Source: Mobula hypostoma (taxonomy: Eukaryota). Taken from it: 64,000 nucleotides of DNA. The position numbers and the translations under genes are program-made. Under the pieces are notes generated by a model. That model saw nothing but the letters and a program-made list of their open reading frames with translations. It was not told where the DNA came from and ran no database searches. The stretch is taken from NCBI RefSeq assembly GCF_963921235.1, contig NC_086097.1:90646001-90710000 (forward strand), in the 5' to 3' direction. Positions 411 through 52,119 of this stretch are shown one piece after another (within the stretch, counting starts at the first letter, position 1; each line of letters begins with the position of its first letter).

Positions 411-1084
411 ATTCATTGGGTAAAGAAGATTTTTGTCATTTAGTCAGTCTATATTTTTGTCTCCACCTTTAAGTCCATTTCTGCCCCTCCGCCCACTGTT
501 CTCTGGCTCATTTGCAATGGGAATAGCTTCCCTTCGTATAATTTAGTTGTGATCTTATAGAACCTTACCAGCTCTTCTCTCAGTCTCCTTTGCTCCAAAG
601 CAAACATTTCCAGCTGTATCTCCAGTCTAACCTTACAGGTGAATTCCCTTTTCCCCGAAACCATCCTGGTAAGCCTCTTCCTTCAGTTTCCGGCTCAGTG
701 TAAGAAGGTTATGAAGAGACTTGGAGTTTCCATTAACTATCAAAACCCAAACTGAGGGCTATACCTTGTATTGCCTTCAGCTTCAAGTTTTCTATTCAAG
801 AATTTACCTTGCAACAGCAGTAAGAGAGGGAGCAGAGGTAGTGAAAAGAATGGATAGTGAGAAACTTTTCCCTGTAATAGAGATGCTTAAAACGGGAGGA
901 TTTAAGTTTTGGGTGAGGTTAGAGGGGATTTAAAGAAAAGGTTTTTCATCCAAAGGTGGCTGCAGTCTGCAGTGCATCTCCTGAGAAGATGGTGGCGGCA
1001 AGTACTCTCATAATTTAGATGTAGAGATGAGTGACATAGAAGGCTACATACCAAGTGCTGGTAAATGGTACTTTGTAAATGGCT

Positions 1085-1400
1085 GGTAATTCTTACCCCT
1101 TCTCCTCACTTGCCAATCACCTTCCCCTGGTGCTCCCCCTTCTTTCCTTTCTTCCATCGTCCCCTCTCTTTTCCTATCAGATTCCTTCTTCTGCAGCCCT
1201 TTACCTTTCCCACTCACCTGCTACACCTATCACCATCTAGGTAGTCCTCCTTCCCCTCCTCCCGTCTTGTTATTCTGGCATCTCCCCTCTACCTTCCCAG
1301 TACTGAAGAAGGGTCTCGGCCTGAAATGTCGACTGCTTATTCATTTCCATAGATGCTGCCTGACCTGCTGCGTTCCTCCTGCAATTTATGTGTGCTGCTC
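1085..1400 (+). mobile_element. Penelope-like element 3' end / pseudo-LTR relic
   Basis: Pyrimidine-rich tract, then a hammerhead-like core, then the tail GATGCTGCCTGACCTGCTG that recurs at ~13.5, 13.9, 31.4 and 59.3 kb. Confidence 0.65.
1298..1335 (+). ncRNA. Minimal type I hammerhead ribozyme motif (Penelope-type, slightly degenerate)
   Basis: CAGTA-CTGAAGA-A-GGGTCTCGGCCT-GAAA-TG-TC-GACTG: stem I (CAGT/ACTG), CUGANGA box, stem II, GAAA, vestigial stem III and UC cleavage site. Confidence 0.6.
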
Positions 1401-1769
1401 TGGGGTTAGTATAGATGGTCGGCATCGATATGTTGGGCCGGAGGGTCATTTTCTGTGCTGCATGGCTCTGTTTCTATACCAAGTGGAGCCTGTTGGAAAC
1501 ATACTCACATTTCCCTTTGAGAACACAATGCAAGAAATGGTCCTTCAGCAGATTGCCAGCAGTGCAAAATGTAGAGCTGCCTAGCAGTGGTGCCAGCTGT
1601 CAATTAGTTTCTACAGTCCCAAAGCAATCTGTGGTCAGGCATTCTGATTATGATGTGCATTGCTACATTTCATTCAAGTTAATCATTTATACGGTGATCG
1701 GCTTTCACTGCGTTACCCCTTGTGATTTAAGGTCCAAATCAACAGAATAATTAACAAAATTCTTTTGGT

Positions 1770-2280
1770 TGGTTCTAGAATGTTTTGAGCAGCAGGAAAG
1801 ATGTAAATAAAGTTGAAAGGCTACAGAGAAAATTTACAAAGATGTTGCTGGGACTGATAAGTTATAAGGAAAGATGGAATAGGTTAGGACTTTATTCTTT
1901 GGAGCATTGAAGATTGAGGGGAAATTTGATGGAAGTATACACAATTATGAGAGGTATTGATAAGGTAAATGCAAGCAGGCTTTTTCCACTGAGGTTGAGT
2001 GGGACTATAACTAGAGGTCAAGGGTGAAAGGTGAAAAGTTTGTGAGGAGAAACCTCTTCATACAGAGGGTCGTGAGAGGGTGGAACGAGCTACCAGTGCA
2101 AGTGTTGCATGTGAGCTTGATTTTAACGTATAAGATAAATTTGCTTCGGTACATGGATGGTAGGGGTATGGGGGGCTATGGTCCCAGCGCAGATCGATGA
2201 GCAAAGGCAGTTTAAATGGTTCAGCACAGACTAGATGGGCTGAAGGCCTGCTCCTGTGTTGTTTTTTCTATGACTATGAA
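1770..2280 (+). mobile_element. CR1 LINE 3' fragment, degenerate
   Basis: Similar to the CR1 ORF2 C-terminus and 3' UTR at 35330-35860 (AATAGGTTAGGACTTTATTC). Ends in a CTATGA repeat tail. Confidence 0.8.
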
Positions 2281-4845
2281 TTTAGGTTGTGGGAGTGTCA
2301 ACCATTGCTGAACAAATGGCACCCTTCACCTCTCTCGCCATGCCTTCAGAACTGTTCTCTTTCAGACCTCTCAAATAGAAATAAAAGATCACAAGGCATC
2401 ACTCAAATATTCAGGAAGTCTCTCCAGTGTTCTAAGACTAATTATCTTAAATAAGGTACTTAATCAGCCATCCCTGATGTCTTTGTGGCATTCCAATGTC
2501 AGGGCTGTGGAATATTGAATAATTTCACAGGTTGTACCAATTGATGCCAATGTTACAAGTCACCAAGTACAGGAAAGTGGAAAGTAAGCAACACACTAGA
2601 AGTCCGAAACACAATGTACAACCTGGGCCGAATTATATGACCACTGCAAGCAGATCTGTTGGCATTCCACAATTGTGCTTGTTAGGTAACAAAGAGGCTG
2701 ATGATTATGCCGTGATCATTACATGGAAGAGGGTATTGTTCATGAGGACCGTTCTTCATCGTCAAACCTGTGTCACCACGAAGGACAGTGGCAGCAGACA
2801 CACAGAAAATGGGAGTACCTCTCTACTTTCATTGTCACTGCTCTGAGATGCCAGGATACCTACCTAAGAGCATTGTAAAAGCATTGCCTTTCCATGCACT
2901 GTGCCCTTCAATACCATCTTCTCAAGTGGAATGCAGGATAGGTAATCAGTATTGACGTTACCTCCAACACTCACCTCCTGTAATCTACCAGCACCTCTTT
3001 CAATTAACATAAAAAGAATATTAGATTAGGCAGGATACCATGGAGTCTTTCCACTTTAGCAGTAAACAGAAAATTTGATATAGAAGAAACGCTGAGCTTG
3101 AGTGAATAGTTTGTCTGATGCATTTATACAAATAGGGAGAGATTTGTATGCATTTTCATGTCATATTAGCCAAGCTGTGCTATCAAACAAGGACCCAAAG
3201 AGCAGGGTTCAGAATCAGAAACAAATTCAGGTTTAATATCACTGGCATATGTCATGATATTTGTTGTTTTGCACAGCAGTACATTGCAATACTTAATAAT
3301 AAAAACTATAAATTACAATAAAATATAGATATACACTTATTGAAAAATATATACTGTAAATATAAATGATTTCAATAAGCAGTTCAGAAGAGAGGGATAA
3401 ACAATACCATGGTACTGAAGTAAGTCTTCATGGGTTCATCGTCCATTCGGAAATCTGATGGCAGAGTGGAAGAAGCTGTTCCTGAAACATTGAGTGTGTG
3501 TCTCCAGGCTGCTGTAGCTCCTTGCTGATGATTGTCATGAGAAGAGGATATGTTTTGAGTGACGGGGGTCCTTAATGATGACTACCACCTTCCTGAGGTA
3601 TTGCTTTTTGAAGGTATTCTGAATTCTGGGGAGGCTAGTGCACACGATGGAACTAGCTGAGTTTGCAACTTTCTTCAGCTTGTGCTGTGGCTCCTTTATA
3701 ATCAAATTCCTGATGAAATATAGCTGATGTCATGCCTTTTTTGTAATTGACTCAATGTGCTGGTCCCAGGATAGGTCCTCAGAGGTGTTGATACCCAGGA
3801 ACCTGAAGCTGCTCACCCTTTCCCCTTCTGATCCCTCGATGAGGACTGGTGTGTGTTCCCTCATCTTATCCTTCCTGAAATGTACAATTAATTCCTTGGT
3901 CTCACTGATGCTGTGTGCAAGGATGTTGCTGCAATACCACTCAATCAGCTAATCTATGTCATTTCTGTACGCCTCCTCATCACCATCTGAAATCCTGCCA
4001 ACAATAGTTGTGTTGTCAGCAAATTTATAGATAGCATTTGAGCCTTGCCTAGCCATGCAATCGTGCGTGTAGAGAGAGTAGAGCAGTGGGCTAAGCACTC
4101 AACCTTGAGATGCTCCAGTTTTGATTGTCAGCAAGGAGGAGATGCTATTTCCGATATGAACAGACCGCAGTCTCCAAATGAGAAAGTCAAGGATCGAGTT
4201 GCAGAAGGAGGTACAGAGGCTCAGGTTTTGGAGCCTGTTGATTAGAACTGAGGGTATGATTTTGTTGAACACTGAGCTATAGTCAATAAACAGAAGGCTG
4301 ATGTAGGTGTTACTATTGTCCAGGTGAATTAAGGCCGAGTGGAGGACGAGTGAGTTTGCATCCACTGTAGAGCTATTGTGACGATGGGCAAATTGCAGCA
4401 GGTCTAGGCCCTTGCTTGGGCAGGAGTTGATTCTAGCCCTGAACAACTACTCAAAGTGCTTCACAGTAGATGTGAGTGCCATTGGGTGACAGTGGTTGAG
4501 GCAGCTCACCCTGTTCTTCTTGGGCACTGGCATGATTGTCACCCTTTTGAAGCAGTGCGAGATTGAAAATGTGCAGTGCAAGATTGATAGATGTTCCAAC
4601 CAGTTAATTGGCACAGGTTTTCAGAGCCATACCAGGCACACCATCAGGGCTTGATGCTTTACAAAGGGTCACCCTCTTGAAAGATGTTCTGATGTTGGCC
4701 TCCAAGGCAGAGGTCACAAGTCACTGGATTCGCTCAGGTTTAGTTTTATTTTCCCTTTCAAATCATGCATAAAATGGATTGAGCACATCTGGGATTGAGC
4801 ATCATAACTACTCATGATGTTAGCGACTGATGGCTGGCAATATTG

Positions 4846-8459: not shown

Positions 8460-10130
8460 AAACATACATATGTGCACACATGCATACCTTTGTTTAAACA
8501 TGTATACCTTAAATGCAGGTATATGCATGTGTTTATCTACATGGGTACATTCATGACTATACATGCACCCATTTGTGTTTCTATGATTAGATTAGATTAG
8601 ATTCAACTTTATTGTCATTGTGCCGAGTACAGATACAAAGCCAATGAAATGCAGTTAGCATCTGACCAGAAATGCAAAGAATAGTGTTTTTTACAAAATA
8701 ACTGTGAATAAAAAGTAAGTGCTACAGCACACAAATATAAAAGTACTGAGACAGTACAATATGGGTGCAATACTGCTTAGCATTGTGATGTGAGATTCAG
8801 CAGGGTCACAGCCTCAGGGAAGAAGCTTTTCCTGTGCCTGCTGGTGCGGGAGCGGAGGCTCCTGTAGCGCCTACCGGATGGGAGGAGAGTAAAAAGTCCA
8901 TGGTTAGGGTGAGATGCATCCTTGATAATGCTTTTCGTCCTGTCCAGGCAGCGTTTATGGTAGATGTTCTCAATGGTGGGCAATTGGGTGCCAATAATCC
9001 GCTGGGCAGTTTTCACCACACACTGGAGTGCTTTGCAGTCCAATACAGGACAATTGCCATACCACACTGAGATGTAGTTGGTGAGTATGCTCTCAATGGT
9101 ACAACGGTAAAAGTTCGTCAGTATCCTGGGACAGAGGTGAGCTTTCTTGATGCTCTGCAGGAAATAAAGGCGATGTTGGGCTTTTTTGACCAGGATGGAG
9201 GAGTTCAGGGACCAGGTGACATCCTCGGAAATGTGGACACCAAGGAATTTGAAGCTTGCTGCACGCTCCACTACAGCTCCATTGATGTAGATGGGGACGT
9301 GAGTGTGGCTCCTAGCATGCCTGAAGTCCACAATGATCTCCTTGGTCTTCTGGGTGTTAAGGGCCAGGTTGTTGTCGGCACACCATGCGGCCAGGTGCTG
9401 ACCTCGTCCCTGTAGGCCGTCTCGTCATCCCCTCTGATCAGACCAACCACCGTGGTGTCGTCTGCGAACGTGGTTATGGAATTAGAACCACGTACAGGAA
9501 CGCAGTCATAGGTGAAAAGGGAGTACAGAAGAGGGCTCAGCACACAGCCTTGAGGCACGCCGGTGTTCAGGGTGAGAGTGGAGGAGGAGAGGTTGTCCAA
9601 CTTAACTAACTGGGGTCTGTTAGTCAGAAAGTCCAAGGTCCAATTGCAGAGGGATACGCTGATACCAAGCTGGCGAAGTTTGGCAATCAGCTTGGAGGGG
9701 ATCACAGTATTGAATGCCGAACTAAAGTCAATGAGCAGCATTCTGACGTAAGAGTTGGGGCTGTCCAGGTGGGTCAGGGCAGAGTGAAGTGCCGTGGAGA
9801 TGGCGTCCTCTGTTGACCTGTTGGTGCGATAGGCAAATTGATGGGGATCCAAGATAGTAGGCAGACAGGATTTCTATGCTGTAATATATCTGTGTGTGCA
9901 TACATATGCACACATATGTGCACACATTTCTAGGTGGCGGGGTGTATCTTTGTACACATGTATGTGTAGGACTTTGTGTTTGTGCATTGCAAGCATGTGT
10001 ATATTGTGTGAATACGACTACCTGTGTAAGTGCACATGCCCACTCCTTTCTGTAAATATGCGTGTACGATGGCGAGTGCACATATGTGCGCAGGAATTTA
10101 AGTAACTGTGTGCATTTGTATGCAGGTGTT
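8460..10130. repeat. Degenerate (CA/TG/TA) purine-pyrimidine low-complexity tract split by the Rex1 insertion (8460-8585 and 9879-10130)
   Basis: Alternating RY sequence (acatacatatgtgcacacatgc..; tgtgtgtgcatacatatgcacac..) on both sides of the TSD. Confidence 0.7.
8586..9870 (-). mobile_element. Rex1/Babar LINE, 5'-truncated, relatively young
   Basis: RT ORF 9271-9852 ([30 protein letters not shown]) frameshifts into 8777-9331. (TCTAA)n tail and 8-bp TSD TTTCTATG at 8578-8585 and 9871-9878. Confidence 0.92.
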
Positions 10131-21167: not shown

Positions 21168-22004
21168 TGTTACGTACCCCGTAACTGGGTTGCCAAACCA
21201 GCAGAAATGGATCACTCAGTTGGAGTCTGGAGTACTAGAACTAAGAAAGTTTTATTAAAGAAACAAGCAACACAGTAATCGAAAGGATAATAAATGCAAC
21301 AATTCAACAATGATAACCACACATGTGCACAGAATTAAGATAACAGCATCAATCAAGCTCTATCGTTGTCTAGGGGTAAATGACCAATTTCAAAATGACT
21401 CAAAGTTCAGTTCGCAGTAATCGTTGCCATGGCGATGGACAAGGTGGGGGAAGAGAGACAGAGAGAACAACTCATCATTCAGCACAGCTTCACTCACAGA
21501 CCAGCGAGATTGCTCACGAGCAACTTTTGGGCGGGTCCTTGGTGATGTCACCTGAGGTCACCGACTGTGACCCCTCCTCCAGATGCGGTCGATCCTCTGC
21601 AGTGAACCCGGCACCCAGGCAAGGGCGGACACACACCGGGTTCCCGCTGATCGTACCTTTCCACCCTGTGCGTTGTCCGATACTTCTCACCACTCGTGAG
21701 AGGCGCACCGCTTCCAGGGTCTCGTTACCTCGGGTGGCGTGTGTGTCTGTCTTAGCGAACCTGTCCCTTTTTATCCCCCTGCTGGGGTATCGCCTGTCCA
21801 TCACTTCAAACAGTTCAAGGTTCAAAGGGGGGAGCCGCTCCAGACAGCTCTCTCTCCCACATCCCTTCATTACACATCTCCAGACGCTGCTCCATTGTTC
21901 CTTATCTCTCCTTCCCCTGAGGGCAGGTGGCAGACCAACTGCTGATGCCACTGATGCTAGCCCAGGCCAGCAAACATCTTAATTTTATGTGTATTCTCGT
22001 AACA
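21168..22004 (-). mobile_element. Solo LTR (Gypsy-type)
   Basis: Termini TGTTACG...CGTAACA, 4-bp TSD ACAG at 21164-21167 and 22005-22008, minus-strand AATAAA near 21255. Confidence 0.88.
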
Positions 22005-22554
22005 ACAGAAAGAGATGCATGAACAGGATGCCCACTTTGCTCATTAATTCTTTTTGACAACTTGTTATCAAAAATCTGGGAACATCGGGAAAGCAAACAA
22101 ACCAAACCGCAGCTGGACACATTTAAAGTCAGGCCAGATTATGGTATTCATTGAGAGGGATTATCATCAGTACAGTTTCCAGTGTTGATTGGGAAGATAA
22201 AGAGGGATGGCCCAAGACTATTTTGGCATGAATCAGGATTGAACGGTACAATCAGTGTACAATTGCATTGCACAATTACATTACTCCCATCGCTTCCAGT
22301 GTAAACAGCACTCAAATTTCAGTGTCCCACAACAGAGACTGACCTGGGAAACGAGTAATGGCATTGCACGGGCAAGCATAGGATCCTGGATACTCTGAAG
22401 CTGCAGTGGTCCCTGGTGCAGGAGGTGGAAAGGAGGAAAGGCACATTTCTTGAAAGATCAACACCCAAGCACATTACACATTCCATGAGGTTCACAGACA
22501 AACTTACCAATTTCTTGCAAGATAATTAGAGGCAGTGCCGCACACAGTTACAGT

Positions 22555-25274: not shown

Positions 25275-25724
25275 TAGTAAGTTTATGTATTGCCCTGTAC
25301 TGCTGCTGCAGCAAAAAAAGAAATCGCAACACATTTGAATGATGATAAACCTGAACCTGATGTGGGTCTCTATTGTGGACTGAAAGTGGGATGTTGGGGG
25401 GTGGGGCAGCGGCAGGGAGAGGGGAATCATAGTTGGGAAAAGGGGAGGGGAGAAAGGAGGGAGTGCGAAGCTGCGAAGCACTGGAGAGATATTCTGTAAT
25501 GATCAATAAACCAATTGTTTGGAATCAAGTGACCTTGCCTGGTGTCTCAGGGCTGGGTGTGTCTGCACCTGCACCTCCTCCTCTGTCCCATGCTCCCCGC
25601 CCCCCGGTGCTCCACCCCTGCCATTCCATCATCCTTTGCTCCCACCAGATTTACAAACATCTCCACTCTACATTGACAAATACAGCACTGTGCAAAGTCT
25701 TAGACACACTGGCTAGGGTTATAA

Positions 25725-28703
25725 AATACACATGGACTAAGATGTTAACTGTCCTGTGCTATCACCAGTGGGATCATCAGTTGATCTGCCACCTGTCTTC
25801 AGGAGTTTCGGCCCGCTTATGATCAAGACTCCTTCGAGGTGGTGGGCCAGCAGTGCTAAAGCACCACCTCCCACTGGTGAGCTTAAAAACTTGGCATCTG
25901 CCTCTATCAGAGTCGTTGGTCACTTCCATCCAACAGATAGTCTGCTCTTCAGGTGTCTATGCAACTACTGAAGGGTTTGCAAGATATGTATACACTGTCT
26001 GACTATCTGCCCCTCTGGACATACTTGGTCCACACCCATGCTGATCCTTTCTCTGCTGCCTCAGCTACAGCCCTGCTGGTTGACTTGATCTCTCTTCTAG
26101 TGAAGCCAAGGTCACGCAGCTACTTCTGGAGAGTGAATGCAATAAACCCACGGCAGCCTACTTCGAATGGATAGCATGAGACCTTCCACCCTCTGTCTCT
26201 GCACTCTGATCTTAATTCTGCATACTTGGTTAGCTTGCGCTCATGGGCTTCATTGATGTTGCCTTCCCAGGGGACTGTGAGTTCACCAATAACCACTTCT
26301 CTACTGGTGTCAGACCATACAATTATATCTGGACGCAATGTTGTGAAAGCTATTTGCTCCGGGAAACTGCCTTTCCTGTCCAGGACAGCCTTGACACACC
26401 AATCATTGGCTGAAGAAAGTATGCTTGATCGTGAGCCTGTGCTGTACACCCTTGACTTGGAGCCTTCTTTCACAAATGATATGCGATGTTCTGTGCAGCA
26501 TGGGGCATGAGATAAGTTGAGCTGCAGTACTCTCTGCTCAACTGCTTCTGTCACAACTTTGAGAACGTTATTATGTCTCCAAGTGTACATGCCGCTGGAA
26601 AGATTGACTCTGCATGCACTCAAGATATGTTGAAGTGTTCCCTTCTCACCACAAGCAGCACACCTGTCTGTCTTATCTTCATACCAGGTGCTGAGGTTGG
26701 CAGGTGTTGGGAGCAGATCGTACATTGCTCTGCATAGAAAAGAAATGTGGAGCGGTTCCATCTGCCACAGAACATTCCAAGATAGATGTCGTTGTTCAAC
26801 ACTTTCCCACTGGGTCCAAGCCCCTTGTTTGGCCAGGCCAGCTGTTTTAGTTAACCTCTTCTCCTCTTCTACTTCTCATATTTCCTGTGTTAAAAGCTCA
26901 CGGTGCACCTTACCTGTAGAAGATGACCTCCACTTGTGGGTTGTCCATCCAAGTCCCTGGCAGCCTAGCTGGATAGCCCCAACCATCTTCTTGTGCTTCA
27001 ATCTAGACTCTGCCTCATCAACTGCTACACGGGCTGATCACTTCCTGCCTGATCTCACATCCGGCTGGATGTTCTTGATGACAGGGTCTTTTGAGTCTCG
27101 AAGCATCAAGAATGATCTTACCTTGGCTACCTTGACCTCCTCAACAAAGGATTGCACTGGGATGGTAAGCTTTGTCTGGCTACTGTGGATTGCAACGTTG
27201 GTGAGGCTGCTCGGTACTCCAAGCCACTTCTTCACATACTTGTTGATCTTCCGTTCCGTTGCTCAACATGGGACATTGCCACTTCATAGACAGTTAGTGG
27301 CCACATTATCCGTGGCATCAGTCTGTACTGCAAGCACCACAACTTCAACTTGCCAGGCAAGCCACACTTGTCAACAGACATCAAACCTCTGCTGATCTGT
27401 TCTCCTGTCTCTTGAACCCTCTTGGTGTTTCTCAGCTCCTCTGTGTACCATCGCCCGAGGTTCTTAACTGGTTGGCCCTGAATGGATGGAATCTCCTCTC
27501 CACAGAGGGGGAAATGAAAGTCAACCAGCTTTCCTCTCCTAAGAACAAGGCTCCTTGACTTCTTGGTGTTGAACTTCATTCTTCCCCAATCCATTAGCTC
27601 CTCGAGTCTAGATAGTACACTTTCCACTGCCTCCGTGCTGGGACCCAAAAGGGTAGGATCATCCATGAACGCTCGTATTGGTGGTAACTCCTCTCCGCCA
27701 TCAAGTGATATACCTGGTCCTACTGATTCTGCAGCCCTCACAATGACCTCCATGGCTAACACAAAAAGGATGGGTGAAATTGCACATCCCATTGGGATTC
27801 CAACATCCAAGCTCTGCCACCTAGTTGTAAACTGCTGAGTGGAAAACCTCATCCGGAAATCATTGTAGTACTGCATACAAAGTTCCTCACCTTAGCAGGA
27901 ATCCATAGGAATTCCATCGCAAACTCAATCAGGACATGGAGAACAGAACCGTACGCATTTGTCAGATCAAGCCAAACTACAGCCAGATTTCTTCTCAACC
28001 TTTTTGACTCCTGGATGGTATGCCATATCATACTAGAATGTTCAAGGCATCCTGTGAAGCCTGGTACTCCTGCCTTCTGCACAGATGTATTTACTAATCC
28101 ATTCTCTATCACAAATGAAGATATTCTTTCTGCCAGAATGCCAAACATAATCTTCCCCTCTGCATTCAGGAGTGAAATTGGTTGGAACTGATTCATTGTA
28201 GAAGAATTCTCTTCCTTCGGGATGTATACTCCTTCAGCCTCACTCCATGACAAAGGAACAACACCTTGTCTCCACACCACCTTTAACAATCTGCACAAGT
28301 ATTTCCTCAGCTGTTCACACTTCTTGAACACCATTAGGTCCTGGCACTGAGCCTGACCTTGCCTTTCTGATGAACCATTCGACTTCTGCCAGTTTGGGTT
28401 CTGACAGATCGAACTTCACTCCTGGCTTGGTAGGCTTCACAAGCCCTGAAATGTCAAGCAAAGGAGCCTCCTGCTGTTCGTTAGAGTAAGTGCTTGCTAG
28501 GTGATCCTCAAGTTCTTGTTGAGAGATGTTAAGCTGCCCACTCTTACTTTGTTCAAACAGTTTCTTTGTGAACTCGTGAGGGTTCTCAAAGAAGAACTTT
28601 CTCGCCTTCTCTCTCTTCTTTCTCTTTTTATGTTGTGACTCTGCATGATGGAGTGATGCTAACTTTATTCGAAAATGCTCTCAGAGATCAGCAAGCCCTG
28701 GCT
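25725..28703 (-). mobile_element. Hero-like non-LTR retrotransposon with RT and C-terminal restriction-like endonuclease (5'-truncated, frameshifted)
   Basis: RT motifs WLDLTNAYGS, GIPMGCAISP and AFMDD (27232-28334). CCHC knuckle CAACGEKGTLQHILSAC. RLE motifs RHNNVL, LRPDIIVW, IGELTVPWE, RKLTKY and FEVGCRG (26120-26761). Reading continues past a premature stop to EAAEKGSAWVW..RGR* at ~26003. Confidence 0.9.
25762..25880 (-). ncRNA. Structured RNA in the Hero 3' UTR containing hammerhead core motifs in rearranged order
   Basis: Minus strand TCACCAGTGGGA-GGTGGTG-17nt-CACCACC-TCGAAGGAG-TC-TTGATC-ATAAGCGGGCC-GAAA-CTCCT-GAAGACAGGTGGCA-GATCAA-CTGATGA-TCCCACTGGTGA, with four perfect helices (12, 9, 6 and 5 bp). 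Confidence 0.6.
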
Positions 28704-29010
28704 TGTCACGCACTGATTGGGAGACCTCTTTAAATAATCAGAGAATGCCGGAAACATGTGCCATCCACAATTATTTTGATAAGATTAAACTGAAAATGCA
28801 AGGGCTTAATGACTCTAGTTAAGATATTGATTAGTAAATACAGGTGCTCAAAAACCCTAGAAGCTCAATGCTCTACGGGAAGCCACAGGGCTCATGACAG
28901 TACCTTCCATCCCCTAAGGCCAGCTCCTGATGGTCCAGGGAGCTCTCAAGCCAACTCCTGATGGTCCAGGGAGCTCTCAAGCCAGGTCTGAAAAACACAA
29001 GGCAGACCTG
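28704..29010 (-). mobile_element. Gypsy LTR relic with adjoining polypurine tract and a 31-bp tandem duplication
   Basis: ..CATGACA|GTACCTTCCATCCCC is the reverse complement of PPT plus LTR start. Unit GCCARCTCCTGATGGTCCAGGGAGCTCTCAA occurs twice at 28919-28980. Confidence 0.5.
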
Positions 29011-33054: not shown

Positions 33055-36042
33055 TTGGTCGCCTCACTATAGGAAGGATGTGGAAGCATTGGAAAGGGTA
33101 CAGGGGAGATATACCAGGATGCTGCCTGGTTTAGAGAGTATGCATTATGATCGGAGATTAAGGGAGCTAGGGCTTTACTCTTTGGAGAGAAGGAGGATGA
33201 GAGGAGACATGATAGAGGTGTACAAGATAATAAGAGGAATAGATAGAGTGGATAGCCAACGCCTCATCTCCAGGGCACCACCGCTCAATACAAGAGGACA
33301 TGGCTTTAAGGTAAGGGGTGGGAAGTTCAAGGGGGATATTAGAGGAAGGTTTTTTTACTCAGAGAGTGGTTGGTTTTACTCAGTCGAAGCAAGCAGCTGA
33401 GAAGGGAGTGAAGAACTCGGGTAGAAAAAAGTCGTTTTTTTTTAAACACTGCTCGGGGAGAAGGGTCTGCACTGCGCAGGCGCATGATGTAGCGTGCCAA
33501 GGTTTAAAAAGCAGACCGCCATATACAGCGGCCATCGTCGGAGTGGACTGAGTCAGAGTGGGACGGCTTTGGCTCAAACAGGCTTTGGCGAGAACAGGCA
33601 AAGTCCAGGGTAGGTTCTGGTAAGTTTTTTGTTCAGATTGTTTTAGAGTAGAGAGAATGCCAGGCAGGAAGTTAGAATGCTCCTCTTGCAGGATGTTGGA
33701 AGTCAGGGAGCCCTCCGGTGTCCCTGACAACGACTCCTGCAAGAAGTGCATCCAGCTGCAGCTCCTGACAAACCGCGTTAGGGAACTGGAGCAGGAGCTG
33801 GATGACCTGCGGATCATTCGGGAGAATGAGGAGATTATAGATAGTAGCTACAGGGAGGTAGTTACTCCAAAGGAGCTGAGGACAGGAAATTGGGTCACTG
33901 TCAGGCGAGGGAAGAGGAAAGGGCAGGCAGAGAAGGGTTCCCCTGTGGCCATTCCCCTCAACAACAAGTATACCGCATTGGATACTGTTGGGGGGGATGA
34001 CTTACCTGGGACAAGCTGCAGTAGCCGGATCTCTGGCACTGGGTCTGGCTCTGCAGTGCAGAAGGGAGGGGGGAAAGAGGAGAGCGGTAGTGATAGGGGA
34101 CTCGATAGTTAGAGATACAGATAGGAGGTTCTGTGGTCGTGACAGAGAATCCAGGACGGTTTGTTGCCTCCCGGGTGCCAGGGTCAAGGATGTCTCTGAT
34201 CGATTGCATGACATTCTGAAGTGGGAGGGTTACCAGCCAGATGTCGTGGTGCACATCGGTACCAATGACATAGCAAGGAAGAGTGAGGAGGTCCTGGAGA
34301 GTGAGTATAGAGAGCTTGGAAGGAAGTTGAAAAGCAGGACCTCGAGGGTGGTAATCTCAGGATTGCCACCTGTGCTAGGTGCCAGTGAGGTTAGGAATAG
34401 GATGCTCTGAAGGATGAACAAGTGGCTGAGGAACTGGTGTAGGGGTCAAGGTTTCAGATTTCAGGATAATTGGGACCTCTTCTGGGGCAGGTGGGACCTG
34501 TACAAGAGAGACGGGTTACACTTGAACTACAGGGGGACCAATATCCTTTCAGGGAGGTTTGTTACTGCTGTTGGGGGGGGCTTTAAACTAGATTTGCAGA
34601 GGGATGGGAACCACAGTACCAGAGCTGACAGTGTGGCTGGGGTGAAAATAAATGATGTTAAAAGTTCAAGCAAATCCGCTGATAGAAAGGTTGTGAGTGG
34701 TGGTAAAAATCTTCTGAGGTGTATATATTTCAATGCTAGGAGTATTGCGGGGAAGGCGGATGAGTTGAAGGCGTGGATTGACACGTGGAATTATGACGTT
34801 ATAGCAATTAGTGAAACTTGGCTACAGGAGGGGCAGGACTGGCAGCTAGTGGTGTGCCACAGGGATCAGTGCTGGGTCCATTGTTATTTGTCATCTATAT
34901 CAATGATCTGGATGATAATGTGGTAAATTGGATCAGCAAATTTGCTGATGATACAAAGATTGGAGGTGTGGTAGACAGTGAGGAAGGTTTTCAGAGCCTG
35001 CAGAGGGACTTGGTCCAGCTGGAAAAATGGGCTGAAAAATGGCAGATAGAGTTTAATACAGACAAGTGTGAGGTATTGCACATTGGAAGGACAAACCAAG
35101 GTAGAGCATACAGGGTTAATGGTAGGGCACTGAGGAGTGCAGTGGAACAGAGGGATCTGGGAATACAGATACAAAATTCCCTAAAAGTGGCAACACAGGT
35201 AGATAGGGTCGTAAAAAGAGCTTTTGGTACATTGGCCTTTATTAATCAAAGTATTGAGTATAGGAGCTGGAATGTTATGATGAGGTTGTATAAGGCATTG
35301 GTGAGGCCAAATCTGGAGTATTGTGTTCAGTTTTGGTCACCAAATTACAGGAAGGATATAAATAAGGTTGAAAGAGTGCAGAGAAGGTTTACAAGGATGT
35401 TGCCGGGACTTGAGAAACTGAGTTACAGAGAAAGGTTGAATAGGTTAGGACTTTATTCCCTGGAGCGTAGAAGAATGAGGGGAGATTTGATAGAGGTATA
35501 TATAATTATGATGGGTATAGACAGAGTGAATGCAAGCAGGCTTTTTCCACTGAGGCAAGGGGAGAAAAAAACCAGAGGACATGGGTTAAGGGTGAGGGGG
35601 GAAAAGTTTAAAGGGAACATTAGTGGGGGGCTTCTTCACACAGAGAGTGGTGGGAGTATGGAATGAGCTGCCAGACGAGGTGGTAAATGCAGGTTCTTTT
35701 TTAACATTTAAGAATAAATTGGACAGATAAATGGATGGGAGGTGTATGGAAGGATATGGTCCGTGTGTAGGTCAGTGGGACTAGGCAGAAAATGGTTCGG
35801 CACAGCCAAGAAGGGCCAAAAGGCCTGTTTCTGTGCTGTAATTTCTATGGTTCTATGGTTCTATGGTGCCTGAGTCAGTGGTGGAGACAGATACACTAGT
35901 GAAGTTTAAGAGACTACTAGACAGGTATATGGAGGAATTTGAGGTGGGGTCTTATATGAGAGGCAGGGTTTGAGGGTCGGAACAACTTTGTGGGCCGAAG
36001 GGCCTGTACTTTGCTGTACTCTTCTATGTTCTATGTTCTATG
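33055..36042 (+). mobile_element. CR1 3' fragment split in two (33055-33374 and 35866-36042) by another CR1
   Basis: The two halves join into a sequence colinear with the sister copy at 6841-7242, lacking ~14 nt at the junction. (TTCTATG)n tail. Confidence 0.85.
33379..35865 (+). mobile_element. CR1 LINE with 5' UTR, disrupted ORF1 (Zn-finger/leucine zipper plus SGNH esterase) and internally deleted ORF2
   Basis: ORF1 has CSSC..CKKC, VIGDS, HIGTND and DGLH. ORF2 has FNARSI..ISETWL fused directly to RT GVPQGSVLGP/FADD at ~34845. (TTCTATGG)n tail. Confidence 0.92.
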
Positions 36043-46181: not shown

Positions 46182-48986
46182 TCAGAACCCTGCACCAGCC
46201 TTCCCTCCATACCCCCTGATCCCTGTAGCCACAAGGGCCATATCTAACTCCCTCTTAAATATAGCCAATGAACCGGCCTCAACTGTTTCCTGTGGCAGAG
46301 AATTCCACAGATTCACCACTCTCTGTGTGAAGAAGTTTTTCCTAATCTCAGTCCTAAAAGGCTTCCCCTTTATCCTCAAACTGTGACCCCTTGTTCTGGA
46401 CTTCTCCAATATCAGGAACAATCTTCCTGCATCTAGCCTGTCCAATCCCTTTAGGATTTTATACGTTCCAATCAGATCCCCCCTCAATCTTCTAAATTCC
46501 AACGAGTACAAGCCCAGTTCATCCAGTCTTTCTTCATATGAAAGTCCTGCCATCCCAGGAATCAATCTGGTGAACCTTCTTTGTACTCCCTCTATGGCAA
46601 GGATGTCTTTCCTCAGATTAGGGGACCAAAACTGCACACAATACTACAGGTGTGGTCTCACCAAGGCCTTGTACAACTGCAGTAGTACCTCCCTGCTCCT
46701 GTACTCGAATCCTCTCGCTATAAATGCCAGCATACCATTCGCCTTTTTCACCGCCTGCTGTACCTGCATGCCCACTTTCAATGACTGGTGTATAATGACA
46801 CCCAGGTCTCGTTGCACCTCCCCTTTTCCTAATCAGCCACCATTCAGATAATAATCTGTTTTCCTATTTTTGCCACCAAAGTGGATAACTTCACATTTAT
46901 CCACATTAAATTGCATCTGCCATGAATTTGCCCACTCACCCAACCTATCCAAGTCACCCTGCATCCTCTTAGCATCCTCCTCACAGGTAACACTGCCGCC
47001 CAGCTTCGTGTCATCCGCAAACTTGGAGATGCTGCATTTAATTCCCTCATCCAAGTCATTAATATATATTGTAAACAACTGGGGTCCCAGCACTGAGCCT
47101 TGCGGTACCCCACTAGTCACTGCCTGCCATTCTGAAAAGGTCCCGTTTATTCCCACTCTTTGCTTCCTGTCTGCTAACCAATTCTCTATCCACATCTTTG
47201 ATAACTGACTCCAGCAGTTTCCCCACCACCAACGTTAGGCTAACCGGTCTATAATTCCCCAGTTTCTCTCTCCCTCCTTTTTTAAAAAGTGGGGTTACAT
47301 TAGCCACCCTCCAATCCTCAGGAACTAGTCCAGAATCTAACGAGTTTTGAAAAATTATCACTAATGCATCCACTATTTCTTGGGCTACTTCCTTAAGCAC
47401 TCTGGGATGCAGACCATCTGGCCCTGGGGATTTATCTGCCTTTAATCCCTTCAATTTACCTAACACCACTTCCCTACTAACGTGTATTTCGCTCAGTTCC
47501 TCCATCTCACTGGACCCTCTGTCCCCTACTATTTCTGGAAGATTATTTATGTCCTCCTTAGTGAAGACAGAACCAAAGTAATTATTCAATTGGTCTGCCA
47601 TGTCCTTGCTCCCCATAATCAATTCACCTGTTTCTGTCTGTAGGGGACCTACATTTGTCTTTACCAGTCTTTTCCTTTTTACATATCTATAAAAGCTTTT
47701 ACAGTCAGTTTTTATGTTCCCTGCCAGTTTTCTCTCATAATCTTTTTCCCCTTCCTAATTAAGCCCTTTGTCCTCCTCTGCTGAACTCTGAATTTCTCCC
47801 AGTCCTCAGGTGAGCCACTTTTTCTGGCTAATTTGTATGCTTCTTCTTTGGAATTGATACTATCTCTAATTTCTCTTGTCAGCCACGGGTGCACTACCTT
47901 CCTTGATTTATTCTTTTGCCAAACTGGGATGAACAATTGTTGTAGTTCATCCATGCAATCTTTAAATGCTTGCCATTGCATATCCACCGTCAATCCTTTA
48001 AGTGTCATTTGCCAGTCTATCTTAGCTAATTCACGACTCATACCTTCAAAGTTACCCCTCTTTAAGTTCAGAACCTTTGTTTCTGAATTATCTATGTCAC
48101 TCTCCATCTTAATGAAGAATTCCACCATATTATGGTCACTCATACCCAAGGGGCCTCTCACGACAAAATTGCTAATTAACCCTTCCTCATTGCTCAAAAC
48201 CCAGTCTAGAATAGCCTGCTCTCTACTTGGTTCCTCGACATGTTGGTTCAAAAAACCATCCCGCATACATTCCAAGAAATCCTCTTCCTCAGCACCTTTA
48301 CCAATTTGGTTCACCCAATCTACATGTAGATTGAAGTCACCCATTATAACTGCTGTTCCTTTATTGCACACATTTCTAATTTCCTGTTTAATACCATCTC
48401 CGACCTCACTACTACTGTTAGGTGGCCTGTACACAACTCCCACCAGCGTCTTCTGCCCCTTAGTGTTACGCAGCTCTACCCATATCGATTCCACATCTTC
48501 CCGGCTTATGTCCTTCCTTTCTATTGCGTTAGTCTCATCTTTAACCAGCAACGCCACCCCACCTCCTTTTCTTTCATGTCTATCCCTCCTGAATATTGAA
48601 TATCCCTGAACGTTGAGCTCCCATCCTTGGTCACCCTGGAGCCATGTCTCTGTGATCCCAACTATATCATAATCATTGATAACAATCTGCACTTTCAACT
48701 CATCCACCTTGTTACGAATACTCCTTGCATTGACACACAAAGCCTTCAGGCACTCTTTTACAACTCTCTTAGCCCTTATACAATTATGTTGAAAAGTGGC
48801 CCTTTTTGATCCTTGCCCTGGATTTGTCGGCCTGCCACTTTTACTTTTCTCCTTACTACTTTTTGCTGCTACCCTCACTTTACACCCCTCTGTCTCTCTG
48901 CACTAGTTCCCATCCCCCTGTTGTGAACTAACCACCTCTCGCCTAGCCTCTTTAATTTGATTCCCACCCCCCAACCATTCTAGTTT
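46182..48986 (-). pseudogene. CR1 ORF2 (APE endonuclease plus RT), disrupted
   Basis: VNARSI, ITETWL, GGGVA, VYRPP, MGDFN, SDH, KSPGPDG, NYRPVSL, GVPQGS and FADD. Frameshifts, one stop, and an internal deletion at ~47195. Confidence 0.9.
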
Positions 48987-49915
48987 AAAGTCACCTCAGT
49001 AGCCCTCGCTAATCTCCCTGCCAGGATATTGGTCCCCCTAGGATTCAAGTGTAACCCGTCCTTTTTGTACAGGTCACGCCTGCGCCAAAAGAGGTCCCAA
49101 TGATCCAAAAACTTGAATCCCTGCCTCCTGCTCCAATCCCTCAGCCACGCATTTACCCTCCACCTCATTGCATTCCTACTCTCACTGTCGCGTGACACAG
49201 GCAGTAATCCTGAGATTACTACCTTTGCAGTCCTTTTTCTCAACTCCCTTCCTAGCTCCCTATATTCTCCTTTCAGGACCTCTTCCCTTTTCCTACCTAT
49301 GTCATTGGTACCCATATGTACCACGACCTCTGGCTCCTCACCCTCCCACTTCAGGATATCTTGAACATGATCAGAAATATCCTGGACCCTCTCACCAGGG
49401 AGGCAAACTACCATCCGGGTCTCTGGACTGCGTCCACAGAATCGCCTGTCTGACCCCCTTACTATCGAGCCCCCTATCACAACTGCCTTCCTCTTCCTTC
49501 CCCTACCCTTCTGAGCTATAGGGCCGGACTCTGTGCCAGAGGCACGACCACTGTTGCTTCCCCCAGGTAAGCTGTCCCCTCCAACAGTACTCAAACAGGA
49601 GTACCTATTGTTAAGGGGCACAGCCACCAGGGTACTCTCTATTACCTGACTCTTCCCCTTCCCCCTCCTAACCGTGAGCCACTTGTCTGCGTCCCGTGGC
49701 CCCGGTGTGACCACCTGCCTGTAACTCCTCTCTATCAACTCCTCACTCTCCCTGACCAGACGAAGGTCATCGAGCTGCAGCTCCAGTTCCGTAACGCGGT
49801 TCCTTAGGAGCTGCATCTCGATGCACTTGGCGCAGATGTAGACGTCCGGGAGGCTTGGAGACTCCAGGGCCTCCCACATCCGACACCGAGAACAGCAAAC
49901 TGCCCTCACACTCAT
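48980..49915 (-). CDS. CR1 ORF1p (Zn-finger/leucine zipper plus SGNH esterase-like), open reading frame intact, 311 aa
   Basis: ATG at 49915. CSRC..CAKC, LELQLDDL zipper, VIGGS (GDS variant), PG, HMGTND and DGLH. Ends TLN*. Confidence 0.8.
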   Translation of the reverse strand: MSVRAVCCSRCRMWEALESPSLPDVYICAKCIEMQLLRNRVTELELQLDDLRLVRESEELIERSYRQVVTPGPRDADKWLTVRRGKGKSQVIESTLVAVPLNNRYSCLSTVGGDSLPGGSNSGRASGTESGPIAQKGRGRKRKAVVIGGSIVRGSDRRFCGRSPETRMVVCLPGERVQDISDHVQDILKWEGEEPEVVVHMGTNDIGRKREEVLKGEYRELGRELRKRTAKVVISGLLPVSRDSESRNAMRWRVNAWLRDWSRRQGFKFLDHWDLFWRRRDLYKKDGLHLNPRGTNILAGRLARATEVTLN

Positions 49916-52119
49916 ACTGCCCCTCTCCTCAAATAACAACAGAAAATGAATACCAAACCTTCCTCGCCCCTCTCGTTTCCGCCTAAGCCCGTTGAGCCGA
50001 AGCCCTTAAGCCTTCACTCTGCTCCCGGCTCACTCCGCAGCCAGCAAACTACGCTGCCCGCTGTATGAGGCTCTGTTCCTTTTAAATCTGCCGCGCTGCA
50101 CTGCCCGACGTCATACGCCTGCGCAGTCCCGCCTCTCTGAACACCGTTGGAGAAAAGAAAAACGAAAATTTCAAAAATTTCTTCCTCCGCACTTCCGCTC
50201 CGACTCTCAGACTTCCTTCTTCGAATCAAACCCGAAGCAGGATTTCTGCCCTTTTTCTTCCCACATTGGTGCTGGTTTGTCTGGACCCCGTTGAGAAGGG
50301 CGGCGTTTCAGTTCTGGTGGGGACCAACACCCCTCTTGTGAGGAGGCTCATGGGGGCCTGCAAGGAGAAGGCTGGCGAGATCTTCCTGGGAACATTGTCC
50401 ATGCACCCAATGTTTCAAGCTGCTTTTGAGGAAGTGCGTGGCTGCATCAGGCCGGATACTGAATTTAGGCAAAGGACTGTGTGGTTCACCCAGTCGAAGC
50501 CAATGGTGGGACGGCCTGGGGAAGTAGCAAGAGTGATGGGGACCTCCAAATTTCCCGGAATGCCTGAGAGCAAGGCCTTCTTAGTGGATGCTCCAGAAAA
50601 CCACGAGGGGGAGTCAGATTTCCTGTGGGGGTACTGGTGAGAACCGAACTGCAGAAGCCCTCAGTTGTTCGGGCAAGCAGAATGGCAGTGATCGTTAGGA
50701 ACACTACAAAGAGGGAGGTCACCTTCAAGTGGGGGATGCCCCTGGTGCATCTGTTCCCAGTGACAGTAATGTCTAGTGCCCCGGTGAGACAAACCGGGGA
50801 GAAACTATTGGAAAAGAGGGGAAAGTTGACTGGTGAATCATTCAAATTTGGGGACTCCCCGGTTCTTGCGGGTTGGAAGAGGAGGTTGGTAGAGAAAATG
50901 TTGAAGCTGGAAGGAGTCCTTTCCACTGATGAGTTTGATGTGGGTTGATCCAGGAGCACTCGCCACACTATCTGGGTGACCGAGGACACCCCGCTTAGAG
51001 AGAAGTTGCAGCGAATGGCCCCTGCAAAGGTGGAGGATGTTCGGCTGCATTTGTGTAAATTGAAGGAAGCTGGGATCATCACTGAGTCCAGAAGCCCCTA
51101 TGCATCCACAATAGTAGCGGCCTGAAAGAAGAAAGGGAAGATATGGATGTGCATGGACTATAGGACTCTGGACAGGTGCACCATCCCTGACCAGTATACT
51201 GTCCCGAGGACTGAAGGTGTGCTGGTCTGTCTAAGTGGTGCGAAATGGTTCAGTGTGCTGGACCTGAGGAGTAAGTATTACCAGATCCCCATGGGTGAGG
51301 CCGACAAAGAGAAGACGACATTTATATGTCCCCTGGGATTCTTCCAGTTCAAAAAGATGCCCCAGGGCATCTCAGGAGCTCCTGTGAACTTTCAACAGGT
51401 CATGGAGAAGACGGTAGGGGATATGAACTTGCTTGAGGTATTGGTGTATCTGGATGACCTCATAGTGTTTGGATCCACCTTGGAGGAACATGAGTGAGGC
51501 TACTGAAGGTGCTCGGTCGCCTGAAAACTGAAGGGTTAAAACTTTCCTTGGACAAGTACCAGTTCTGCAAAACGTCTGTTAGCTATGTTGGGCACATAGT
51601 CACATGGCATGGAGTAGCTACAGATCTGGCTAAGATAGAGGTGGTGACCACTTGGACAAGATCCAGACTGTGAGCGCTCTACGCTTGTTCCTCGGGTTCT
51701 GTGGTTATTATCGGAGGTTCATGAAGGGCTATGCAAAGGTGAGTCACCCATTGAATCACCTTCTGTGCAGTTACCCTCCCTTGGGGAAGAAAGGGAGGGG
51801 TAAATAGAGGACAGGAGGGTGGAGAGCATCTTTGCCCGTCAGAGCCCTTCGGACTGAGGTAGGATGTAAACTGTGAAGAGGCCTCTCAGCCGCTGAAGGA
51901 ACTGTTGACTCAGGTGCTGGTGCTGGCTTTTGTGGATCTCCGATTGCCATACGTACTGCACACGGATGCCAGCCGAGAGGGTTTAGGGGGCGTCCTGTAT
52001 CAGGATCAAGGCACCAGGCTGAGACTCATTGCGTTTGTCAGTCGGAGTCTGTCACCCTCCAAGAAAAACTATCCCATGCACAACTTGGAATTTCTGGCAT
52101 TGAAATAGGCGGTGGTGAG

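Follow-up and report, generated by a model that had tools for sequence, protein, structure and literature searches.

Among hammerhead ribozymes, a non-circular order of the core strands has been described for type SGC, or HRIMA-1; in the accessible text of the paper describing it (Eckert et al., 2023, PMC10085705), SGC RNAs come from metatranscriptomes only, none being reported from genomes of known organisms, and the scheme of permutations assumes that CUGAnGA is contiguous with the strands of the neighbouring stems. According to the available parts of the respective papers, the reverse transcriptase (RT) of Penelope-like elements starts internally (PMC11167929), and retrozyme monomers have been circularized in vitro by RtcB (PMC7229834). 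Here, we analyze a hammerhead-like motif in the 3′ untranslated region (UTR) of a HERO-like non-LTR (long terminal repeat) retrotransposon copy, located on the minus strand of a 64,000-nt stretch of the Mobula hypostoma genome (GCF_963921235.1, contig NC_086097.1, positions 90,646,001–90,710,000; hereafter, the window).

From sequence comparisons, we consider the motif to be a new architectural variant, hammerhead-like, conserved across a retrotransposon clade, and accompanied by genomic evidence for a partial-tandem, copy-twice life cycle.

Results

The motif in the window

An earlier note, based on the letters of the window, had described, in the 3′ UTR of a retrotransposon with a restriction-like endonuclease (RLE), a hammerhead core whose strands follow a non-circular order, about 120 nt past the stop of the open reading frame (ORF). 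All this agrees with our analysis: the stop at 26005–26003 lies 122 nt upstream of the motif, and the minus-strand blocks AGGAG-UC-UUGAUC (25833–25821), GCGGGCC-GAAA-CUCCU (25816–25801), and GAUCAA-CUGAUGA-UCCC (25786–25770) follow each other in the order S-G-C. Stems I and III are perfect 6-bp helices, and the enclosing 12-bp helix (25880–25869/25773–25762) is present as well. The pairing suggested for the GGCC preceding GAAA is also borne out, in an extended form: GGCCC/GGGCC is the true stem II. It is non-canonical, as had been noted, in that it is split, with the G10.1 equivalent coming from an upstream strand (Table 1).

The motif fold has a z-score of −3.3. A relaxed descriptor has exactly one match in the window (cut base 25827) and one match in 100 Markov-resampled windows (12.8 Mb, both strands). 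No Rfam ribozyme family reaches the threshold in the window or in 14 homologous loci.

Table 1. Strands of the predicted fold and parts of the host element, in window coordinates.
Feature	Coordinates	Strand	Remarks
Helix a, 5′ strand, 12 bp	25869–25880	−	Partner 25762–25773
Hairpin h, 8 bp and 4-nt loop	25849–25868	−	Abuts helices a and b without linker
Helix b, i.e. 5′ strand of stem II	25844–25848	−	G25848 is the G10.1 equivalent, from upstream; G-C 29/36, G-U 5/36
Helix c, 5′ strand	25837–25842	−	Partner 25789–25794; bridges stems II and I at their far sides, as does helix "I" in type SGC
Stem III strand, ends in G16.2-U16.1	25828–25833	−	
C17, predicted cut 3′ of this base	25827	−	Unit position −111/−110; by analogy to the hammerhead core
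Stem I, 5′ strand	25821–25826	−	
Stem II, 3′ strand (b′), ends in C11.1	25810–25814	−	
G12-A13-A14-A15.1	25806–25809	−	Invariant 36/36
Remainder of stem III partner strand	25801–25805	−	
Helix c, 3′ strand	25789–25794	−	
Stem I, 3′ strand	25781–25786	−	
CUGAUGA box (C3–A9)	25774–25780	−	N7 is U/C/A/G across homologues
Helix a, 3′ strand	25762–25773	−	Begins right after A9
Retrotransposon copy with RT, CCHC, and RLE, 5′-truncated, frameshifted	25718–28709	−	Unit positions 858–3865 of the 3866-nt unit, 95% identical
ORF stop codon TAG, then 3′ UTR	26003–26005	−	
Tail to the fixed 3′ end of insertions (putative start of reverse transcription)	25717–25761	−	5′ UTR directly next in long copies

Conservation in homologues

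The protein search yielded 155 relatives of the element protein, found in lancelets, fishes, bivalves, and metagenomes; a scan of viral contigs found none. Loci were fetched using an alignment of 35 proteins, the metagenome loci being the best 80 of 278 confirmed ones plus four loci from metagenome-assembled genomes, none of the latter four usable. The resulting 84 related loci comprise 46 with the full core, 18 with less than 130 nt after the stop, 12 partial or decayed (a class defined by a loose regular expression, four of whose members, L103, L119, L120, and L173, show no real motif), and eight without the motif, of which L117 is a contig end and L135 is mis-anchored. Thus, the full core is found in 46 of the 66 loci with sufficient 3′ sequence. 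The same clade has a second family in the M. hypostoma genome, represented by G000:C12:93546807-93549983 and G000:C5:63449070-63452252 (L205 and L207), with stop-free frames exceeding 1100 aa, a GUA version of the motif, and partial tandems.

The relationships of the loci were described by a quick tree covering the nuclease region only, without Repbase HERO sequences or outgroups. The Tetraodon nigroviridis polyprotein Q7T1J8 (44% identical) nests in this tree among motif-bearing loci (support 97 with L148). The 3′ UTRs of L103, L110, L119, L120, L147, L149, and L169 form a subclade without the motif (support 88); several of them share, by eye, short UAAUC, CUGAG, and GGAUUAA-like words with no Rfam match, and may contain another ribozyme.

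For the analysis of covariation, the truncated L122 was dropped from 48 parsed sequences, and the rest were collapsed at 80% identity to 36 distinct versions. The parser required CUGANGA and GAAA, whereas spacing, helices, and the identity of N17 were not imposed. The parts of the motif are conserved in the order a, h, b, c, III-UH-I, b′-GAAA-III′, c′, I′-CUGANGA-a′. In an unfitted MAFFT alignment of the 36 versions, 90.2% of cells at 31 pairs are paired, compared to 62.9% in shuffled and 35–41% in slid controls, and 285 double changes are observed vs. 78 in the shuffled set; kinship among sequences inflates such tests, and the slid control retains it. Six helices covary. The fraction of paired cells is 98% in stem III, 96% in stem I, 95% in helix b, and 81% in helix c, the figures for stems I and III being partly circular, because both stems were used to choose the cut site, which does not concern a, b, c, h, and N17. 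Double changes occur in stems I and III, and in the partner-swap tests none of 5000 trials reached the observed pairing for a, b, c, I, and III. The covariation of stems I and III and of the enclosing helix, which the earlier note had named as the way to check its proposal, is hence strong.

The fixed letters of the core (C3-U4-G5-A6-N7-G8-A9, G12-A13-A14-A15.1, and U16.1) are invariant in all 36 versions, and N7 is free to vary. N17 is U in 18, A in 16, and C in 14 of the 48 sequences and never G, an absence with an expectation of about 1e-6 given the local G content, if the 36 versions are independent. The 16.2–15.2 pair is G-C in 33 versions and A-U in three. The avoidance of G at N17, the 16.2–15.2 pairing, and the free N7 read as hammerhead rules. 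By analogy with known hammerheads, self-cleavage of the motif, predicted 3′ of C25827, is very probable.

A T>C change of U16.1 (25828) was observed in mixed backgrounds in nine of 173 family copies, which is the highest rate inside the ribozyme and is not unique in the UTR.

Stem II and the four-way junction

We considered a short CCC/GGG stem II between the strands that follow A9 and precede G12, and rejected it: in only four out of 36 versions is 11.1, which directly precedes G12, paired with the nucleotide following A9. Instead, 11.1 pairs with the first G of the upstream helix b in 34 versions, and in 32 versions helix a opens with the nucleotide following A9. Since 11.1 pairs with the upstream G while A9 runs into helix a, stem II is helix b. 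Helices a, h, and b abut without linkers in most versions, and the A9–G10.1 backbone link is replaced by the a/h/b four-way junction, presumably stacked in a productive way. Thus, the motif likely works as a hammerhead while falling outside every described type, its stem II not being closed directly after A9.

The 9-bp hairpin of the earlier note (25836–25844/25862–25870) is present in the window family and in its minimum free energy (MFE) fold, but it is not conserved. At its site, the longest Watson–Crick run is nine in the window and two to four in the other 35 of the 36 distinct homologues, while the competing helix c has 5–8 bp in 28 of the 36. We therefore rejected the hairpin as a conserved element; it is family-specific and competes with both hairpin h and helix c.

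Copy ends and partial tandems

The 3.5-Gb genome contains 698 occurrences of the 25-mer that begins at the predicted cut. Among 60 copies picked by 25-mer, 59 matches end at 25713–25725, about 110 nt past the cut, and one is interrupted. The suggestion of the earlier note that the cut defines the 3′ end of the retrotransposon does not hold: none of the copies ends or begins at the cut. None of the 60 copies is truncated there, and genome-wide patterns, which catch only flanks differing at both neighbouring bases, found zero copies ending and zero copies starting exactly at this point. The possibility of RT falling off at a nick was rejected, given no genome-wide matches starting at the cut. 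The absence of copy ends at this site shows that the template runs uninterrupted through it.

Five of the 60 copies are 5′-truncated at 25832–25844, i.e. 5–17 nt upstream of the cut. The observation is post hoc; these truncations fall at the foot of the 9-bp hairpin peculiar to this family, and copying of the strand that competes for it could leave this hairpin free to fold.

The 5′ ends of long copies are not fixed. The first 30 nt of the 5′ UTR occur in 49 places, all of which were examined (nine short tails, one of only 7 nt, were read by eye; L230 and L234 share a common flank and are probably one insertion). In 48 out of 49 copies the 5′ UTR start is preceded by the 3′ tail, the junction being identical apart from point changes. 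The tail ends within 93 nt in 28 copies and passes the cut site in the remaining 21, where it is from 161 to more than 1500 nt long. The sequence is seamless both across the cut site and across the junction of the tail and the 5′ UTR. The same join is present in three of six second-family copies as well as 15 of 62 metagenome loci, at 85–135 nt after the cut in the 12 loci where the cut was parsed.

Both tails are usable in 30 of the 49 insertions. They share 95 non-majority variants compared to 28.5 expected from other copies, a value reached in none of 2000 permutations; 24 of the shared variants, in 11 insertions, are absent from every other one of the 40 downstream tails compared. These private variants rule out that the two tails were brought together by a randomly drawn copy inserting ahead of an existing one. 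Taken at face value, the shared variants require recurrent duplication from one molecule, at the time of insertion or in a recent parent, and one template was probably copied twice. Later gene conversion may also have contributed to the likeness of the tails.

A 20–30-fold depth step near the cut in contigs from four sequencing runs was discarded, as the loose ends match a high-copy LTR-like repeat bearing the last approximately 86 nt of a related tail. The window has a repeat of this kind at 21168–22005: it is young and high-copy, 840 nt long, has inverted TG..CA ends, and resembles a solo LTR (889 candidates, the best 40 of them being 99–100% identical over the query). About 86 nt at one end are 80% identical to the last 86 nt of the retrotransposon, without the ribozyme core.

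The element and its surroundings

The element family has a single ORF, a frame of about 1185 aa with RT, a CCHC finger, and RLE. The ORF of the window copy matches RVT_1 and zf-RVT, and the CxxC-H-C and PD..E motifs are visible; the GIY-YIG endonuclease, a trait of Penelope-like elements, is absent from the element's protein. The best PDB matches of a close homologue are R2 chains (E 1.6e-24). Insertions are dispersed, with unrelated flanks, and target duplications show no excess in the 29 copies examined. The HERO clade is not known to have a fixed target site. The Tetraodon element HEROTn corresponds to Zebulon, for which partial tandem arrays were reportedly described by Bouneau and colleagues in 2003. 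HEROTn is listed in the HERO clade (PMC7650587). Based on the ORF domains, the dispersed insertions, and the homologues, the retrotransposon of the window is provisionally termed HERO-like.

Other remnants of long interspersed nuclear elements (LINEs) in the window lie at 47112–50005, 8777–9873, and 34815–35666, and comprise an ORF with an apurinic/apyrimidinic (APE) endonuclease and an upstream esterase (GDSL) ORF, plus RT fragments. No host genes were recognized among the 12 window frames scanned.

Discussion

A life cycle that would account for the seamless double tails can be outlined as follows. A master copy with an upstream tail would be transcribed through, and both ribozymes would cut the transcript, producing a cut-to-cut RNA. 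The cut is spanned by helices a, b, c, and III, which would allow both termini of this RNA to meet in one refolded active site and be joined, by the ribozyme itself or by an RtcB-type ligase, into a circle. With target priming about 110 nt downstream of the joint, the element protein would reverse-transcribe through the joint and on through the ORF and the 5′ UTR; run-on into a second round would rebuild the upstream tail, with the ribozyme needed by the next-generation master. For this scheme as a whole (a cut-to-cut unit RNA, circularized and reverse-transcribed from an internal start) we see the chances as evenly balanced. A still broader proposal, slightly less probable than that and made tentatively, is that this is a fourth rearranged-hammerhead architecture, with the backbone broken at A9/G10.1 and a perfect four-way junction replacing stem II, that it goes back to the ancestor of an entire clade of R2-related animal LINEs, and that it acts as a clamp that would cut and re-ligate the 3.9-kb mRNA into a protein-coding circle, copied by rolling, internally primed reverse transcription.

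Several observations weigh against a catalytic motif that yields a circular template. The shared variants may be inherited from a parent with two already identical tails. The base after A9 and 11.1 are not paired with each other in 32 of the 36 versions, and therefore the junction must stack correctly for catalysis, while the competing 9-bp hairpin sits in the MFE fold of the window family; the pairing figures for stems I and III are, as said, in part circular. The change of U16.1 to C, expected to harm cleavage, has the above frequency of 9/173 against a mean T>C rate of 1.4%, other T sites also reaching 5%, and its interpretation as a ligation scar is not established. One subclade lacks the motif, yet its members L147 and L149 are still tandem. 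Finally, the density of second-pass 5′ ends is 0.78%/nt before the cut and 0.21%/nt past it, a 3.6-fold difference; the change point falls at 92–107 nt, and stops between −37 and −110 account for 16 of 37 second-pass vs. three of 67 first-pass cases (p 2e-6; 27 of the 67 were already known to pass from the 60-copy comparison). A linear RNA whose 5′ terminus lies close to the cut would explain such ends at least as well as a pure circle. The step fits either an admixture of linear RNA starting at the cut or stalling of RT upon meeting its own anchored cDNA; as it adjoins the predicted cut, it lends weak, indirect support to something happening at this point in vivo.

The distribution of these ends is what would be expected if the ribozyme were used as in R2, the upstream-tail copy releasing a linear RNA at its 5′ end from the surrounding host transcript, and possibly aiding translation, the downstream copy escaping cutting or being repaired, and the long tails arising by uncut read-through or occasional template jumps. 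The 28 of 49 second-pass ends within 93 nt, three of them at −92/−93, and the change point just short of the cut conform to this, and R2 and L1Tc use a 5′ ribozyme in this way, according to the available text of PMC6765202. However, there is no pile-up at −110 itself, both ribozyme copies have the same sequence, so that cutting by only one is left unexplained, and a linear scheme only shortens tails, whereas 21 of 49 cross the cut seamlessly with private shared variants; we find such use unlikely, if worth serious attention. The seamless cut site would also be natural if uncut multimeric transcripts of tandem arrays were the real template, with internal initiation as in Penelope-like elements, a slow ribozyme serving turnover or control, and tandems produced when RT, on reaching the 5′ end of an RNA, switches to the 3′ end of that RNA at the junction of the tail and the 5′ UTR. 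Unprocessed RNA is, in the accessible part of PMC11167929, the main in vitro substrate of the anole Penelope-like element, which also speaks against a circle; R2 RT is reported to copy across non-continuous templates; and L147 and L149 are tandem without the motif. Still, a free end at the junction is seen in only one of 49 copies, with no added letters, so that the jump would have to be nearly obligatory and exact, and we hold this explanation to be distinctly improbable.

It is less probable still that the motif is a hammerhead-derived, non-catalytic fold bound by the element protein to start reverse transcription. The non-contiguous stem II and the lack of a genomic scar at the cut would be in line with such a role, as would the LTR-like repeat of the window, which has the last approximately 86 nt of a related tail and no core. 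A scaffold does not, however, predict the observed pattern, in which N7 and the stems vary, G alone is avoided at N17, and no catalytic letter changes. As for chance resemblance, the core motifs are short, and nothing beyond that speaks for it; covariation across the 36 distinct versions, the occurrence of the motif in homologues, and the rarity of the descriptor in resampled sequence refute it, making it almost certainly wrong. We retain, with the reservations above, a predicted self-cleaving motif whose product would be circularized and copied from within.

The split stem II breaks an explicit assumption of the current scheme of hammerhead permutations, and pattern searches would miss the motif because the contiguity assumed in that scheme is broken. 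Non-circular permutations are moved from metatranscriptome RNAs into animal genomes, with hundreds of copies, and dozens of natural variants become available for the biochemical and structural question of whether the A9–G10.1 link is needed. The renewal of the duplicated tail in partial-tandem retrotransposons becomes testable via a defined cut site. Should circles indeed serve as the template, initiation by an R2-related RT within circular RNA would be relevant to RNA-templated gene insertion.

Comparison with known systems

In the literature searched, with most subscription journals and Repbase outside the search, we found no hammerhead linked to HERO or other RLE elements. The earlier note regarded permuted orders as rarely described. 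The S-G-C order itself has already been published as type SGC, although, in the accessible text of PMC10085705, neither from genomes of known organisms nor with a split stem II; a 2026 paper (bioRxiv 10.64898/2026.07.22.740005) cites for unusual hammerhead forms, in its available part, only Eckert et al. and one other work. As far as the accessible description of type SGC goes, the motif shares with it the block order, the core letters, a short linker between the stem I strand and the 3′ strand of stem II, and an extra helix, here c, linking the far sides of stems I and II (the equivalence is judged from the text description). Unlike type SGC, block C is interrupted here, A9 running into helix a and G10.1 coming from the upstream strand via the a/h/b four-way junction, and the motif is genomic, residing in animal retrotransposons. 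With the type I–III hammerheads of Rfam it shares CUGANGA, GAAA, NUH, stems I and III, and a pair similar to G10.1–C11.1; it differs from them by the order S-G-C rather than the cyclic C-G-S, by several pseudoknots, and by the lack of an Rfam match.

As in the HERO clade, the homologues come from lancelet, fish, and bivalve, and Tetraodon Q7T1J8 is among the motif-bearing loci. Similarity to R2, which, in the available text of PMC6765202, has a 5′ HDV-like (hepatitis delta virus) ribozyme, consists in a single ORF with RT and a restriction-like nuclease, and in a ribozyme cut that lies, in a tandem, upstream of the ORF. Unlike R2, the ribozyme belongs to another class and is located in the 3′ UTR, the insertions are dispersed, and there is no fixed 5′ end.

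The closest analogy in terms of the life cycle is provided by Penelope-like elements and non-LTR retrozymes, which, according to the accessible parts of the respective papers, have the same partial-tandem (pseudo-LTR) layout with a hammerhead in the terminal repeat, and for which internal RT start and circular intermediates have been proposed or shown (PMC11167929; PMC7229834; PMC6765202; bioRxiv 10.64898/2026.07.22.740005). Their hammerheads are minimal or of type I, and they encode a GIY-YIG nuclease or no protein, whereas here an autonomous 3.9-kb element with CCHC and a PD-(D/E)xK nuclease carries a full monomeric permuted core.

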